From Escherichia coli (lineage in GTDB: Bacteria; Pseudomonadota; Gammaproteobacteria; Enterobacterales; Enterobacteriaceae), in NCBI RefSeq assembly GCF_003019035.1, contig NZ_CP027447.1: DNA of 64,000 nt; one strand, 5' to 3'. The translations under genes were made by a program, and so were the position numbers. Positions 19,500 through 26,025 of the stretch are shown in pieces (positions within the stretch are counted from its first letter, which is position 1; each line of letters starts with the position of its first letter). Below the pieces are notes generated by a model. It saw only the letters and a list, made by a program, of their open reading frames with translations, had not been told where the DNA came from and made no database searches.

Positions 19500-19514
19500 A
19501 CACATTTAATAAGA

Positions 19515-19544
19515 AAAAGGGCGGTCAGAAGATCGCCCTTTTTT
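19515..19544 (+). terminator. pgm intrinsic terminator
   Basis: AAAAGGGCGGTC-AGAA-GATCGCCCTTTTTT. Confidence 0.7.
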
Positions 19545-19554
19545 ACTTATGACT

Positions 19555-19653
19555 GCCTGATGCGCTACGCTTATCAGGCTTGGGAAGATGGTGCAATGTA
19601 TTGAATTTGCTCTATTTTGTAGGCCGGATAAGGCGTTCACGCCGCATCCGGCA
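19555..19653. repeat. BIME: two REP palindromic units
   Basis: GCCTGATGCGCTACGCTTATCAGGC and GGCCGGATAAGGCGTTCACGCCGCATCCGGCA. Confidence 0.75.
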
Positions 19654-19703
19654 TGAACAACGAGCGCTTTGCCAACAAACTGAATAGCTCAAGGGAATTC
19701 AAA

Positions 19704-20198
19704 ATGAAGACCAAAAGGAGTCTGGTCGTCAGAGTGGCATTAATTACCGCCACACTACTGCTGACAGCATGCGCCCAACCTGAACAATCATCATTAGCTG
19801 GTGACTGGTTACTGACCCCTAAAGATAAAACCAGAGGATTAACGGGGAGCATTGCGGTAAATATTGCGCCTTCCCGGTGTAAGACAAATTGCCGTGGCGA
19901 TAACTTACCTGATAATACCCGCCGCTGGCAGTTGTCAGGCGGGAACGAAAAAGAACTTACTTATCTTCATGATATGTCAGCACAAGAAAAGACCGGTTTA
20001 AATCCTGAATGGCAATGCTACACCTCATTTTTTATGGGGATTTGCCAGGGTAAGCCCGGCACTCGACCGATAGTTAATGAGGATTATGTCAGCGAAAGCG
20101 GATTTTTTGGCTCGATGATGCATGTAGGGATTATTGAGTTGCGACGCTGTCAGTCAGAAAATTGCCAGCAAGAATTGAAAGCGATAAACACACATTAA
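19704..20198 (+). CDS. ybfP: lipoprotein
   Basis: 164 aa from MKTKRSLVVRVALITATLLLTAC (lipobox LTAC). Confidence 0.8.
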   Translation: MKTKRSLVVRVALITATLLLTACAQPEQSSLAGDWLLTPKDKTRGLTGSIAVNIAPSRCKTNCRGDNLPDNTRRWQLSGGNEKELTYLHDMSAQEKTGLNPEWQCYTSFFMGICQGKPGTRPIVNEDYVSESGFFGSMMHVGIIELRRCQSENCQQELKAINTH

Positions 20199-20238
20199 AA
20201 TAGCGAGTCCGGGAATGAAACCCGGACCTGAACATGTC

Positions 20239-20889
20239 TTATTGCGTGATTGTTTCTTTCATTTGATACTGCATTTCCCAGAGTTCAGTAAGCGAAATAA
20301 CTTTTCTTGTTCTTGCTTCTTCACATTGTACCCATAAGAAAGGGTAGAAAGTGAAGGCTTCCGTTGCCGATAATTTTATTACGTCTTCTTGCCATTGCGG
20401 CCAGCGTACATTTTCATAGAAGGTATCTAAATCACCGGATAATGCCCACTGAAGAAACTCAGAATATCCAACCTCCAGACTTTCCCAATTCAGCGTATCT
20501 GGCGCAAAATAATAAACGCAGCCAGTATCTTCCCCAAGATCGCCACCATTAAGAGCAAAAATTCCCCCTGCGACATCATCGGCGATGGGTAAAGCCCGCA
20601 CGCTTGCGAATTCAGGGCGTTGTGTCCAACTTGCTGGATCTCGTGGTAACCGGGGGTGACCAGAGCCTGCTATGCGTAACCAACCGTTATCAATCAGCAG
20701 ACCTCCGGAGCCATAGACAAGCGCACCCATCGGTGATTTTGTTGTAACCTGTAATTGATAAAGTGCGGTTTCGGCTAAATCTTTATTAACCGGTAAGAGT
20801 TCGGCATGGTTTGTGGCTTCTTTTAACCAATTCTGGATTATTGGCCAGGCTGAATCTTCAGTATTTACTAACTGACTCACTTCACGCAT
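20239..20889 (-). CDS. ybfG: DUF2625-family protein (ybfG-like), apparently intact
   Basis: About 216 aa if started at MREVSQL, which has an AAGGAG Shine-Dalgarno; the track ORF continues to an upstream ATG with a poor RBS. Confidence 0.6.
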   Translation of the reverse strand: MREVSQLVNTEDSAWPIIQNWLKEATNHAELLPVNKDLAETALYQLQVTTKSPMGALVYGSGGLLIDNGWLRIAGSGHPRLPRDPASWTQRPEFASVRALPIADDVAGGIFALNGGDLGEDTGCVYYFAPDTLNWESLEVGYSEFLQWALSGDLDTFYENVRWPQWQEDVIKLSATEAFTFYPFLWVQCEEARTRKVISLTELWEMQYQMKETITQ

Positions 20890-21011: not shown

Positions 21012-21156
21012 TTCAAAGCATAAACCGATACCCAATACCGGTTTCAGTAATGAAATGGCGGGGCGGACGAGATCCTGTTCCAGTTTTTGTCGCAAATGCC
21101 TCATATAATTACGCAAATAGTTGCTGTGTTCGACCGCGTTTGGACCCTACACCTGC
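21012..21156 (-). pseudogene. duplicated 3' fragment of kdpE (last ~47 codons plus stop), frameshifted
   Basis: About 92% identical over 145 bp to 25347-25491 (kdpE 3' end), first 50 nt identical, one 1-nt indel; seen by direct comparison. Confidence 0.75.
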
Positions 21157-21197
21157 CGGATGCGGCATAAATAACGAACTCTTTGTCAACAAACAGA

Positions 21198-21226
21198 AAG
21201 GGCGATCATTCAATCGCCCTTTTTTA
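21198..21226. terminator. hairpin terminator downstream of potE
   Basis: AAAGGGCGAT-CATTCAA-TCGCCCTTTTTT. Confidence 0.6.
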
Positions 21227-21237
21227 TTTCGCTTTTT

Positions 21238-22557
21238 TTAACCGTGTTTATTTTTCAGTTCAAAGCGTGGAGATACCAGACCATACAGTGTCCAACCAAG
21301 GAAGGTCACGATGGAACCGTACAGCATGGCTTCTTCCCCGGATGAGTACAGCGCATAGAAACTGTACATCGCACCAACAAAGGCAACAAAGTTTGCTACT
21401 TTCGCTTTTGACGGTGGCACATTGGCGACCTGCTGAATAATGACTAACGCCGCCATCGACAGAATATACGGGATGATATTGGTCACCACGGCCAGGTTAA
21501 CCAGCACGTTGAACTGGCTGTTCAGTGACGGGCTAATGGTCATCAGTGCCAATCCACTCTGAATAATCACAATGGTCAACATTCCCTGAACCGGTGCATC
21601 CACTTTGGTTACACGGGAGAAAATTTTAGGGAAGTAGCCTTCATCAGATGAAGATTTAAACACCTGGGCAATGGTGAACTGCCAGCCAAGCAGTGAACCG
21701 CAGCAGGACATCACCATCAGCGCCATAATGACTTTACCCACTTCCGGCGTGAACATCTGTGCGAAGGCCAGGCCAAATGGTGCCGTTGAATTTGCCAGCT
21801 CCATATTGGGCACAATCCCGGCAATCACGTTGGTGGAGACGATATAAATCACTGCCGCACCTAACGTACCGCCAAGGACTGCTATTGGCACGTTACGTTC
21901 CGGGTTTTCCACTACTTCGGCGTTGGCACAGGCAGACTCCAGACCGAGGAAAGCCCACAACGTCATGGCGATGGAGGAACCTACAGCGCTAAAGAACGGT
22001 ACATGATGAGGGTTCCATGAGTTAGCGTACAGCGTCGGGCTAAACCAGAACCAGCCGATAATGCACAGACCGACGACCGGAATAATGACCCCCCACACAG
22101 TAATGCTACTGATTTGCCCGGTAATGCGCGCACCACCAAAGTTAGCCACGGTACAAATCCACAGCACTCCGATGGTCGCAAGACCAATCTGCACTGGCGA
22201 CAAACTCGCGCCGAGCAGTTCGGTGCCGTAACCAACCGCCGAAATAGCAATTGCGACGTTAGCAATCAGCAGCGAGACACCGTAGGTGTAGTTCGCCATA
22301 AAGTTACCGGATTTACCGAAAGCATACTCGGCATAACCGCCCATACCACCTGATTTACGGCTGAACATGCCGCATTTTGCGAATGCCCATGCCAGCGCCA
22401 TTGAGCCTACGGCAGTCACCAACCAGGAGATTATTGAGATTGTCCCAACTTCGGCAAGCTTTGTCGGCAGCATGATGATACCGGAGCCCATCATGTTGAC
22501 CATCGTCAGTATGGTTAACTGAACGACGCCCATTTTGTTCGATTTAGCCTGACTCAT
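21238..22557 (-). CDS. potE: putrescine:ornithine antiporter (APC family)
   Basis: 439 aa, 12 TM; overlaps the speF stop. Confidence 0.95.
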   Translation of the reverse strand: MSQAKSNKMGVVQLTILTMVNMMGSGIIMLPTKLAEVGTISIISWLVTAVGSMALAWAFAKCGMFSRKSGGMGGYAEYAFGKSGNFMANYTYGVSLLIANVAIAISAVGYGTELLGASLSPVQIGLATIGVLWICTVANFGGARITGQISSITVWGVIIPVVGLCIIGWFWFSPTLYANSWNPHHVPFFSAVGSSIAMTLWAFLGLESACANAEVVENPERNVPIAVLGGTLGAAVIYIVSTNVIAGIVPNMELANSTAPFGLAFAQMFTPEVGKVIMALMVMSCCGSLLGWQFTIAQVFKSSSDEGYFPKIFSRVTKVDAPVQGMLTIVIIQSGLALMTISPSLNSQFNVLVNLAVVTNIIPYILSMAALVIIQQVANVPPSKAKVANFVAFVGAMYSFYALYSSGEEAMLYGSIVTFLGWTLYGLVSPRFELKNKHG

Positions 22558-24752
22558 AATTTTTCCCCTTTCAACAGGATGCTTTGCGCATCACGAGGCT
22601 TGATGACATAGCACCAAACTTGCTTACGACCATCATGTTCTTCGATATAGACACCCTGAAGCTCCGGTGCAAAACCTGGCAGCAGGTTGATCCCTTCTTC
22701 CAGAGCGCTGAAGTAACGCAGAACAGCACCACCCCAGATTTCACCCGGAACAACACACAGCACACCCGGAGGATAAGGAAGCGCACCTTCTGCAGCGATA
22801 CGGCCTTCTGCATCCGGCAGACGAACCAGCTCCACTTCACCGCGTAAATAGGCGTAGTTGGCTTCTTGTGGATTCATGCTGACACGTGGGAAGTGTTCCT
22901 TACGAAACATCTCTTTTTGCAGTTGTTTCACGTTGTGACGGGCATACAAATCATGCATTTCCTGACACAACTGACGCAGGGTATAACCGGTGTAGCGCTC
23001 TTCATGCTGTTTGTAGATGGAAGGCAGTACTTCTGATAATGGCGCGTCGGACTCAAGCAGTTTTTCGAAGCGTACCAGCAGAGCAGCAAGTTGCTGAAGT
23101 TTGGCCATATCTTCTGCCGGAGTCAGCAGAAAGAGGATGGAGTTAAGATCGCATTTTTCCGGCACTACGCCATTTTCGCGCAGGAAGTTAGCAAGAATCG
23201 TCGCGGGTACACCGAACGCTTCATATTCGCCGTTACGTGCATCAATACCTGGGGTTGTCAGCAACAGTTTGCACGGATCGACAAAGTATTGATTCTCTGC
23301 ATAGCCTTCAAAAGAATGCCAGTGCTCACCTGGTACAAACTGGAAGAAGCGCAGATCAACCGCAATTTGCGCTGTTTCATACGACTGCCAGGGTTTACCA
23401 TCCACCAGTTCAGGTACGAATGGACGAATATGCTGACAGTTATCGAGGATCAGTTTGCGGGCATTAATGCCATTTACCACACAATCCATCCACATATTAC
23501 GACCGCTGACACCTTCATGCATTTTGGCGTTGATATCCAGTGCGGCAAACAGCGGATAGAACGGGCTGGTGGAGGCATGCATCATAAAGGCGTTGTTCAT
23601 GCGTTTGTGCGGTACATAACGCTGTTGCCCTTTGATATGGCTGTCTTTTTTATGGATTTGTGAAGTCTGGGAAAAACCAGCCTGCTGTTTATGCACAGAT
23701 TGCGTAACCAGAATACCCGGATCGTTCTCATTAAGATCCAGCAACAGTGGTGAACAGTCCGCCATCATCGGGATAAACTGCTCATAGCCGACCCATGCGG
23801 AGTCAAAGAGGATGTAGTCACACAGATGACCAATTTTATCCACCACCTGACGGGCGTTATAAATCGTACCGTCGTAAGTGCCTAGCTGAATAACGGCGAG
23901 GCGGAAAGGACGCGCCTCTTTTGCCCGCTGCGGTGCGACTTCTGTAATCAGTTCGCGCAGGTAATTTTCTTCGAAGCAGTGGGCATCAATACCACCGATA
24001 AAGCCATACGGGTTGCGTGCGGTTTCCAGATAAACTGGTGTTGCGCCAGCCTGTAGCAACGCTCCGTGGTGATTAGATTTATGGTTATTACGGTCAAACA
24101 GCACCAGATCCCCCGGTGTTAACAGGGCGTTTAAAACCACTTTGTTAGAAGATGAAGTGCCATTTAGAACGAAGTATGTTTTATCGGCATTAAACACTTT
24201 TGCCGCATGTTGCTGTGCAATGCATGGCGCGCCTTCGTGAATCAGCAGATCGCCCATTGCCACATCCGCGTTGCACAAGTCAGCACGGAACAGCGCCTCA
24301 CCAAAGTATTCCACAAACTGATTCCCCGCCGGATGGCGACGGAAAAATTCGCCGCCCTGATGACCGGGGCAATCAAACGCGCTGTTACCCTGATTGACAT
24401 AATCGACCAGTGCGCGGAAGAAGGGCGGGCGCAGTTGAGTTTCATAATGGCTGGCTGCGGTTTCTAACTGACGACCATAAAATTCTCGTCGCGATTCGCA
24501 ATTCTCAAAGACACCCGAAATACGGGGCAAATACTCTGCGGGTACACGTTCTTGATTTTCAGTAGCAATAAATACCGGGATGCCATAACCCGTGGCATCG
24601 ATTTCATCGAGTTTTCCGCGTGTAACATCGTTGAGCGATAAAACTATTGCCGCCACATCGATATTACTGTTTTCATTAATATAGATACATTCTCGCTGCG
24701 TGGTAAAACAGTCCGGGCAAGAATCACTAACCGCAATTTTTAATTTTGACAT
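22554..24752 (-). CDS. speF: inducible ornithine decarboxylase
   Basis: 732 aa from MSKLKIAVSDSCPDCF; fold-type I PLP decarboxylase. Confidence 0.95.
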   Translation of the reverse strand: MSKLKIAVSDSCPDCFTTQRECIYINENSNIDVAAIVLSLNDVTRGKLDEIDATGYGIPVFIATENQERVPAEYLPRISGVFENCESRREFYGRQLETAASHYETQLRPPFFRALVDYVNQGNSAFDCPGHQGGEFFRRHPAGNQFVEYFGEALFRADLCNADVAMGDLLIHEGAPCIAQQHAAKVFNADKTYFVLNGTSSSNKVVLNALLTPGDLVLFDRNNHKSNHHGALLQAGATPVYLETARNPYGFIGGIDAHCFEENYLRELITEVAPQRAKEARPFRLAVIQLGTYDGTIYNARQVVDKIGHLCDYILFDSAWVGYEQFIPMMADCSPLLLDLNENDPGILVTQSVHKQQAGFSQTSQIHKKDSHIKGQQRYVPHKRMNNAFMMHASTSPFYPLFAALDINAKMHEGVSGRNMWMDCVVNGINARKLILDNCQHIRPFVPELVDGKPWQSYETAQIAVDLRFFQFVPGEHWHSFEGYAENQYFVDPCKLLLTTPGIDARNGEYEAFGVPATILANFLRENGVVPEKCDLNSILFLLTPAEDMAKLQQLAALLVRFEKLLESDAPLSEVLPSIYKQHEERYTGYTLRQLCQEMHDLYARHNVKQLQKEMFRKEHFPRVSMNPQEANYAYLRGEVELVRLPDAEGRIAAEGALPYPPGVLCVVPGEIWGGAVLRYFSALEEGINLLPGFAPELQGVYIEEHDGRKQVWCYVIKPRDAQSILLKGEKL

Positions 24753-25009
24753 TTTCCAACTCTTTATTTTTGGTAATAGCAGGTCCTCAATTTCTCGAAT
24801 GAGAAATCGATCGTGCCGGAAAAAAAGCAAAGTTACCCTGCTGATAAATTAATCAGAAGTTTGCTTTTTTCAGAATGCAGAAACCCTTATCAGTCCGGTG
24901 GCTGATAATACAAGGGTTAACAGAGAATGAGCACTGCGGAATACAGGCATATGCCTGTAATACAGAGAGTCAGGAAGACCTGTACGCTGAAGTGCCCTTA
25001 GTCGGTAGA

Positions 25010-25114
25010 CTAACGGGCATTGAAGAAGTGAAAGTCGAAGCTATTGCGATGAGCAAACTTCATAATATGAGTTGTCCGCCTTATATGGGGCATAGTGCGG
25101 CTGTTATTTTCCAT
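25010..25114 (-). CDS. speFL: speFL, 34-codon leader ORF upstream of speF (ornithine-sensing ribosome-arrest peptide in this family)
   Basis: Own translation of minus strand: MENNSRTMPHIRRTTHIMKFAHRNSFDFHFFNAR; not in the track (below 60 aa). Confidence 0.8.
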   Translation of the reverse strand: MENNSRTMPHIRRTTHIMKFAHRNSFDFHFFNAR

Positions 25115-25285
25115 TTAATTTACCTTTCCTGATGTGAATGAAGGTGAAGGTATTCTATCCAGGAAATACGGTTGAACTGTGAAGGTGATCAATAAAAAAT
25201 GATCAATCTTAATTTATTTAATGATGAGCTTTTTACTCAGTAATATAAAATATTGAATTGTTATTTTTGTGTGTTGTTTAAGATA

Positions 25286-25313
25286 AAAAGCCGTATTTAT
25301 TATTACGGCTTTA
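25286..25313 (-). terminator. kdp operon terminator
   Basis: AAAGCCGTAATAATAAATACGGCTTTTT on the minus strand, 35 bp after the kdpE stop. Confidence 0.6.
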
Positions 25314-25347
25314 ATTAATAAAAGGCAGGATGTATTAAAATTAATAT

Positions 25348-26025
25348 TCAAAGCATAAACCGATACCCAATACCGGTTTCAGTAATGAAATGGCGGGGGC
25401 GAGCGGGATCCTGTTCCAGTTTTTGTCGCAGATGTCCCATATAAATACGCAAATAATGGCTGTGTTCGACCGCGTTTGGCCCCCACACCTGGTTAAGGAG
25501 CTGGCGCTGGGTGAGCACTTTTCCGGCATTGTTGAGCAGCACCGCCAGCAGGCGAAACTCAATCGGGGTGAGATGCACCTCTTCCTCACCGCGATGGATC
25601 ACGCGGGCGGCTAAATCGACGGTCACATCGGAAAATTTCACCAGCGGATCGGGCGCGGTGGTGGCGGAGTGGCGGCGTAAAGCGACGCGCAGACGGGCCT
25701 GCAATTCGCCAATGCCAAACGGCTTACTCAGGTAATCATCCGCTCCGGCATCCAGCGCGGCGATTTTGTCGCTCTCTTCGCTGCGTGCGGAAAGCACAAT
25801 CACCGGCACCGCGCTCCACTGGCGCAGGTCGCGGATAAACTCAATCCCATCACCATCGGGCAGGCCGAGATCGAGAATAATCAAATCTGGCTTACGGGTT
25901 GCCGCTTCCAGCAAGCCGCGTTGCAGCGTTTCGGCCTCAAAGACGCGCATCCCGTCGCCCTCCAGCGCCGTGCGCAGAAAGCGACGAATAGCCTGTTCAT
26001 CTTCAACAATCAGAACGTTTGTCAC
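25348..26025 (-). CDS. kdpE: response regulator KdpE (OmpR family)
   Basis: 225 aa; receiver domain with D52-type site, winged-helix C-terminus. Confidence 0.95.
   Translation of the reverse strand: MTNVLIVEDEQAIRRFLRTALEGDGMRVFEAETLQRGLLEAATRKPDLIILDLGLPDGDGIEFIRDLRQWSAVPVIVLSARSEESDKIAALDAGADDYLSKPFGIGELQARLRVALRRHSATTAPDPLVKFSDVTVDLAARVIHRGEEEVHLTPIEFRLLAVLLNNAGKVLTQRQLLNQVWGPNAVEHSHYLRIYMGHLRQKLEQDPARPRHFITETGIGYRFML

Follow-up and report, generated by a model that had tools for sequence, protein, structure and literature searches.

The closest described counterpart of the element analysed here is the pseudogene ybfI of Escherichia coli K-12 MG1655, annotated as b4636 at 716721..716870, and its functional relative is kdpE, which encodes an OmpR/PhoB-family response regulator (kdpFABC operon) composed of a Response_reg receiver domain and a complete Trans_reg_C DNA-binding domain. 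Our literature searches on ybfI, b4636, ybfG and ybfP found no discussion of this pseudogene, returning only an unrelated Bacillus subtilis ybfI and incidental mentions. A second described system concerns genome structure: REP-associated join points are known for chromosomal duplications and rearrangements in enterobacteria, and REP elements are reportedly join points of tandem duplications in Salmonella.

We analysed a stretch of E. coli DNA of 64,000 nt (hereafter the window) in which a fragment matching the 3' end of kdpE lies close to the functional gene (Table 1). The element is already known, being orthologous to the annotated K-12 pseudogene: like ybfI of K-12, it is flanked by ybfG and potE and oriented as they are; the two copies are 93.1% identical over 145 nt with collinear flanks, are both homologous to the kdpE 3' end, and have in common the inactivating TGG→TAG change and other derived substitutions. 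It differs from the K-12 copy in belonging to a second allele class and in having an extra 1-nt deletion. The original prediction had mentioned a KdpE-homolog pseudogene near this position in K-12, and the MG1655 annotation confirms it. We regard it as near certain that this element is ybfI, the no longer functional remnant of an Escherichia kdpE 3' end. Its setting also resembles the REP-associated join points, in that a REP-like arm adjoins its upstream boundary and the island in which it sits has REP clusters on its flanks; it departs from them in that the junction here has only a 12-nt REP arm and a tail.

Identity and decay of the kdpE-like fragment

Pairwise alignment of 21012-21155 (144 nt) with 25347-25491 gave 133 identical positions, 11 mismatches and a single gap of 1 nt, or 91.7% identity (133/145), in agreement with the ~92% first proposed; the start of the fragment had been placed correctly, but its end, given as 21156, was 1 nt too far. 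A repeat finder returned an exact run of 52 bp shared by the two segments (21012-21063 = 25347-25398), followed by a further 96 nt of repeat at 89%, and the kdpE stop codon lies inside the exact run (TCA on the plus strand, 21013-21015 and 25348-25350), much as had been noted for the first ~50 bp. Relative to kdpE, one base is missing from the G run at 21060-21063, which is the 1-nt indel that had been noticed and which shifts the frame, and an in-frame TAG (from TGG) is found close to the upstream end of the fragment, at 21147-21149. The homology covers kdpE codons 179-225, that is the last 47 codons, plus the stop; on the downstream side the similarity ends 1 nt past the stop codon, and on the upstream side it ends at the REP-like arm GCCGGATGCGGC. 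Since both the fragment and the kdpE 3' end are on the minus strand, they form direct repeats, 4,335 bp apart. Within the 64-kb window blastn found two copies of the kdpE tail and no others (E = 1.5e-55), and this value, together with the 133/145 identities and the 52-bp exact run, puts the identity far above background and leaves no room for chance or low-complexity similarity as its explanation.

Table 1 Features of the kdpE-pgm region in the window (strand: -, minus; +, plus;., none assigned)
Feature	Coordinates	Strand	Basis
ybfI pseudogene (kdpE tail, winged-helix C-terminal part)	21012..21155	-	Alignment, PGAP, K-12 annotation, Pfam
Functional kdpE, 225 aa, Response_reg + Trans_reg_C	25348..26025	-	ORF list, annotation, Pfam
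speFL-speF-potE operon	21238..25114 (speFL 25010-25114, speF 22554-24752, potE 21238-22557)	-	Annotation
ybfG (DUF2625), directly downstream of ybfI	20239..20889	-	Annotation
ybfP, Escherichia-restricted orphan lipoprotein gene, in variable island	19704..20198	+	Annotation, homolog search
term1, terminator hairpin downstream of pgm, first copy	19511..19548	.	Repeat and genome comparison
term2, bidirectional hairpin downstream of potE, second pgm/potE terminator copy	21197..21229	.	Both-strand terminator scan
Junction filler, REP-like arm GCCGGATGCGGC and ~30-nt tail	21155..21196	.	Sequence

Functionally, the fragment is far from a complete regulator. When the TAG and the frameshift were mended, the repaired 47-residue translation matched Pfam Trans_reg_C at positions 33-77 of 77 (E = 5.5e-9), so that, compared with KdpE, ybfI has no receiver domain (PF00072) and is missing the first 32 positions of the DNA-binding domain; no start codon for a complete Trans_reg_C reading frame is present in the fragment. 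In E. coli AR_0013, which is 100% identical to the window over the fragment region and 99.9% identical in speF, PGAP annotates the counterpart of 21013-21146 as a pseudogene ('winged helix-turn-helix domain-containing protein; frameshifted; incomplete; missing N-terminus'), the frameshift being flagged in addition to the incompleteness because of the extra 1-nt deletion of this allele. Lacking a receiver and a start codon, and with a premature TAG and a frameshift, ybfI cannot make a functional regulator. As for RNA, an Rfam search at E ≤ 1 returned nothing for the fragment, and its predicted fold was no more stable than that of shuffled sequence (z = 0.07 on the minus strand and 0.56 on the plus strand). 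Judged from its sequence, ybfI thus appears to encode neither a protein nor a structured RNA.

Evolutionarily, we compared two ybfI alleles with the kdpE 3' ends of four E. coli haplotypes, Salmonella, Citrobacter koseri and Citrobacter freundii. The identity of ybfI to kdpE is 88-92% for the E. coli alleles and 77-83% for Salmonella and Citrobacter, and this closer relationship to E. coli kdpE than to that of other genera indicates an origin within Escherichia. Four changes are common to the K-12 and window alleles, namely TGG→TAG, GGG→GGT, CAY→AAC (His to Asn) and ATT→AAT (Ile to Asn), and the first, third and fourth of these fall on residues that are invariant in the E. coli, Salmonella and Citrobacter KdpE proteins compared. 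Each allele also has private changes (mutual identity 93.1%), and the 1-nt deletion of the window allele is absent from K-12-type genomes. This pattern suggests that ybfI was inactivated once, before the lineages that carry it split, and that it has probably drifted since. At the population level there are two allele classes, some 5-7% apart: a K-12 type, at ~94.7% identity to the window, and a window type, which accounts for ~200 of the 1,833 carriers at ≥95% identity. We found no support for gene conversion between kdpE and ybfI as the cause of the 52-bp run, since the allele-specific sites of the two do not co-vary between K-12 and the window; kdpE is simply at its most conserved there.

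Could such a relic have been co-opted, as a small RNA, as part of the 5' leader or promoter region of ybfG, or as a small protein? The fragment precedes ybfG by ~120 bp in the same orientation, a weak match to a sigma-70-like promoter overlaps its 3' end (TTGAAA-18-TAAAGT, 21016 to 20987), and it has been retained in 1,833 genomes, all of which speaks for such a role. Against this, the fragment has no Rfam match and its folding energy is no better than shuffled on either strand; the promoter-like match fits 9 of 12 consensus positions, which is at chance level (6 found versus 3.8 expected); the two allele classes are 7% apart, with indels and a nonsense codon, which exceeds the divergence of the flanking genes; and ybfG is itself a pseudogene in K-12. 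We therefore hold a present function of this kind to be very improbable.

Gene arrangements between kdpE and pgm

Read along the minus strand, the gene order in the window is kdpD, kdpE, speFL, speF, potE, term2, a REP-like filler of ~40 bp, ybfI and ybfG, beyond which follow ybfP (on the other strand), a REP cluster, term1 and pgm; the location between ybfG and potE beside a REP-like sequence, as originally described, was borne out by this order and by the GCCGGATGCGGC arm. Two pairs of direct repeats are nested in this arrangement. One pair, the kdpE 3' end and ybfI, encloses the 4.2-kb speFL-speF-potE block, and the other, the two terminators, of which term2 (repeat at 21192-21229) is a direct repeat of term1 (19511-19548) at 79% identity, encloses the ybfP-ybfG-ybfI island, whose GC content is low (40-47%). 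Genomes that lack the island, O157:H7 and TCM3e1 among them, have just one terminator, of the term1 type, which serves the convergent pgm and potE. The filler between term2 and ybfI resembles the end of a REP and the tail upstream of ybfP (about 19640-19690) and matches the ybfP-upstream tail of strain VCSW5 at 81.8% over 44 nt; a probe containing it was fully covered in 1,829 genomes, which is essentially the ybfI set. A single 12-nt REP-like arm (21155-21166) adjoins ybfI, compared with ~35 nt for the imperfect palindrome of the REP consensus, and full REPs are found at 19513-19689, away from the ybfI junction, with sub-threshold matches to the REP-derived naRNA4; in the REP cluster from the pgm terminator to ybfP (19549-19690), the best naRNA4 match scored 39.6 bits, versus a gathering score of 59.5. 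As to ybfG itself, the window has an intact ORF of 216 aa, and both K-12 MG1655 and EV36 have a pseudogene with an internal stop.

Across 5,426 complete E. coli genomes, the kdpE-pgm interval was found in four states. The commonest, speFL-speF-potE only, accounts for about 3,340 genomes (the remainder of the survey), and the K-12 and window arrangement, speFL-speF-potE-ybfI-ybfG-ybfP, for 1,833. In 247 genomes the order is pgm-ybfP-REPs-kdpE, with ybfG and the entire speFL-speF-potE operon missing (as in VCSW5, locus L015 8188-8999, and in locus L024 7824-8607), and in two, CUWW10 and GF4-3, an intact kdpE is followed by ybfG-ybfP through the downstream flank of ybfI. Consistent with these counts, a speF probe gave nothing, or paralog-level matches only, in about 300-380 of the 5,426 genomes. 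All of these arrangements part ways exactly at the kdpE stop codon, past which lies AT-rich DNA leading to speFL, or REPs leading to ybfP (the 247 genomes), or the ybfI flank leading to ybfG (the two genomes). In the window, the AT-rich stretch from the kdpE terminator to speFL (24900-25350) has 35-37% GC, versus 53-60% in kdpE and kdpD.

The island-free genomes Rb-50, GF131 and TCM3e1 have speF, potE or kdpE alleles identical or near-identical to those of the window (21238-24200), with speF of Rb-50 100% identical and the PotE protein of TCM3e1 the same as that of the window, so that presence and absence of the island segregate among closely related local haplotypes. The ybfP gene of GCA_974498655 (L024 7884-8495) is 87.8% identical to the allele of K-12 and the window (19580-20199) at the DNA level and 66% at the protein level, with flanks at 96-99%, and is either unusually divergent or a fast-evolving orphan lipoprotein gene.

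Outside E. coli, the order is kdpE-speFL-speF-potE-pgm in C. koseri, the same with one extra gene before pgm in Salmonella, and kdpE-pgm directly in C. freundii, and none of the three has a second piece of kdpE. These arrangements place speF-potE at the kdpE-pgm site before the origin of Escherichia, a polarity based on these three outgroup genomes only. Homolog searches with YbfP returned E. coli-type sequences only, and YbfG (DUF2625) has homologs above 90% identity in E. coli only, the next being at ~55% in other genera (Kosakonia, Erwinia, Pantoea and Citrobacter). A scan of species-representative genomes with YbfG found no kdpE-ybfG neighbourhood outside E. coli, its only matches being two homologs in Paenibacillus (42-43%) and one E. 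coli-like contig that had been mis-binned. Likewise, kdpE was beside none of five distant or intermediate DUF2625 homologs, the two intermediate ones lying on contigs of ~1 kb on which the flanks are not visible. Together, the outgroup and homolog patterns mark the kdpE/pgm junction as a hotspot of gene-content turnover. Distant DUF2625 homologs adjoin PAAR, Imm74, DcrB or DUF596 genes (L011 3475-5670; L009 4988-6690), which suggests a neighbourhood of the toxin-immunity type for this family.

Proposed origin of the fragment by recombination

How did the end of a second kdpE come to lie here? The most likely origin, we infer, is a merger of two haplotypes, and on balance we favour, with some reserve, the view that ybfI is the decayed 3' relic of a kdpE, left as the scar of a recombination that joined two alternative arrangements downstream of this gene. 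One ancestral type would have had speFL-speF-potE between kdpE and pgm, as C. koseri and Salmonella do, and the other would have had ybfG/ybfP directly after kdpE (kdpE-ybfG-ybfP-REPs-terminator-pgm). A single recombination could then have joined the left part of the former (kdpD-kdpE-speFL-speF-potE-terminator) to the right part of the latter, consisting of the last 145 bp of its kdpE followed by ybfG-ybfP-REPs-terminator-pgm. The join would have been illegitimate, at the REP-like sequence and 145 bp before the second kdpE ends; there is no REP in kdpE at the corresponding point, which argues that it was not a REP-by-REP homologous recombination. One such merger would leave two copies each of the kdpE 3' end and the terminator, as direct repeats, as well as the boundary of similarity at the stop codon, and the fragment would have decayed without constraint ever since.

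The original prediction had suggested an old segmental duplication. Its age is upheld by the presence of the fragment in 1,833 of the 5,426 genomes, by the two allele classes and by the TGG→TAG change common to them, and a simple duplication is now less favoured than the merger. A simple segmental duplication would be expected to have arbitrary end points, and the fragment instead ends 1 nt past the kdpE stop, which is the point at which the haplotypes diverge; moreover, E. coli haplotypes exist with an intact kdpE in the place of the fragment or directly beside ybfP. The stop-codon boundary, the duplicated terminator and these kdpE-bearing haplotypes together make a merger a better fit than copy-and-paste duplication. 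Some findings count against the merger. Among the 5,426 complete genomes no deep-branching kdpE-ybfG parent was found, and the 40-bp filler from term2 to ybfI, seen in ybfI-bearing genomes only, is explained by neither parent as observed; a candidate parent with the filler beside potE and without the fragment was likewise not found, the filler occurring only in the ybfI set. CUWW10 and GF4-3 were also considered as survivors of the parental arrangement; this is not the reading we prefer, as both island and kdpDE fall within the diversity of K-12-type genomes.

An in-place tandem duplication, in a chromosome with speF-potE only, of a segment that ran from 145 bp inside kdpE to slightly beyond the potE terminator, with the second speFL-speF-potE later replaced by ybfG-ybfP, accounts for much of the same evidence, in that it predicts both repeat pairs (kdpE 3' ends and terminators) and a join at a REP-like sequence. 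It needs an extra step, however, to replace the 4-kb second copy, and, as the replacement must again begin precisely at the kdpE stop, it does not dispense with a kdpE-ybfG donor; no genome with a duplicated speF-potE was found in the survey, in which the speF probe hit a median of one place per genome. Because of the extra step and the donor it still demands, we rank tandem duplication second to the merger and consider it rather unlikely. Far less credible is that the fragment and ybfG-ybfP were imported together from a donor outside Escherichia that had kdpE and a DUF2625 gene side by side. The lack of close YbfG relatives outside E. coli (nearest homologs ~55%) and the low GC of the island (40-47%) would suit a foreign source, but this idea is largely refuted by the fragment being 88-92% identical to E. 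coli kdpE versus 77-83% to that of Salmonella and Citrobacter, and it also runs against the restriction of ybfP to Escherichia and the absence of kdpE beside the distant DUF2625 homologs examined.

The fragment as a direct repeat

The sole likely activity of ybfI is a passive one, as a 145-bp direct repeat that can recombine with kdpE and delete speF-potE. Through recombination between kdpE and ybfI, speF-potE would be lost and ybfG would become the neighbour of an intact kdpE. CUWW10 and GF4-3 have just such a structure: they lack speF-potE, their kdpE is intact and continues into the ybfI flank, and their island is of the K-12 class. Their islands are 99.4% and 98.75% identical, respectively, to that of K-12 and ~94.7% identical to that of the window, and kdpDE of CUWW10 is 100% identical to K-12 over 2.35 kb. 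Nested as they are in K-12-type diversity, the two genomes are best read as secondary deletions rather than as deep relics, and on these sequence comparisons they are probably kdpE-ybfI recombinants that have lost speF-potE. This reading of them is the only evidence for a present-day activity of ybfI, as a recombination substrate. If the parent of CUWW10 had the K-12 ybfI allele, its deletion needs a crossover in the terminal 19 bp of homology, a tract that is short for RecA-dependent recombination.

Taken as a whole, the K-12-type kdpE-pgm region may be a fossil hybrid of a speF-potE and a ybfG/ybfP haplotype, with ybfI as its scar and with speFL-speF-potE precisely excisable, the two excision products among 5,426 genomes being CUWW10 and GF4-3; we advance this combined claim tentatively, at a little less than an even chance. 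If true, it would add a modest but neat detail to the history of the E. coli genome. The K-12 arrangement would bear the datable scar of the combination of two alternative gene blocks, and the acid-stress operon speFL-speF-potE would be an excisable cassette. The fragment itself matters little, as an annotated pseudogene with no sign of function, and the added value lies in its context, that is the nested direct repeats and the four-state kdpE-pgm polymorphism, which are of modest use for understanding how E. coli genomes evolve. Roughly 5-7% of complete genomes naturally lack the inducible ornithine decarboxylase/antiporter operon speF-potE. From the 145-bp repeat we would also predict instability, with loss of speF-potE and restoration of an intact kdpE-ybfG junction, which might show up when K-12-type strains are engineered or resequenced.

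Losses of another kind were also seen at this locus. KL53 and E41 are clearly IS1-mediated deletions. In KL53 (L019 5181-6008) an IS1 insertion is accompanied by an adjacent deletion in which speF-potE and ybfI were lost, and in E41 (L016 8840-9870) IS1 is found with a deletion that removed everything from the 5' end of ybfG through kdpB-kdpE and left only kdpFA. These IS1 insertions are two independent events at the kdpE-pgm locus.
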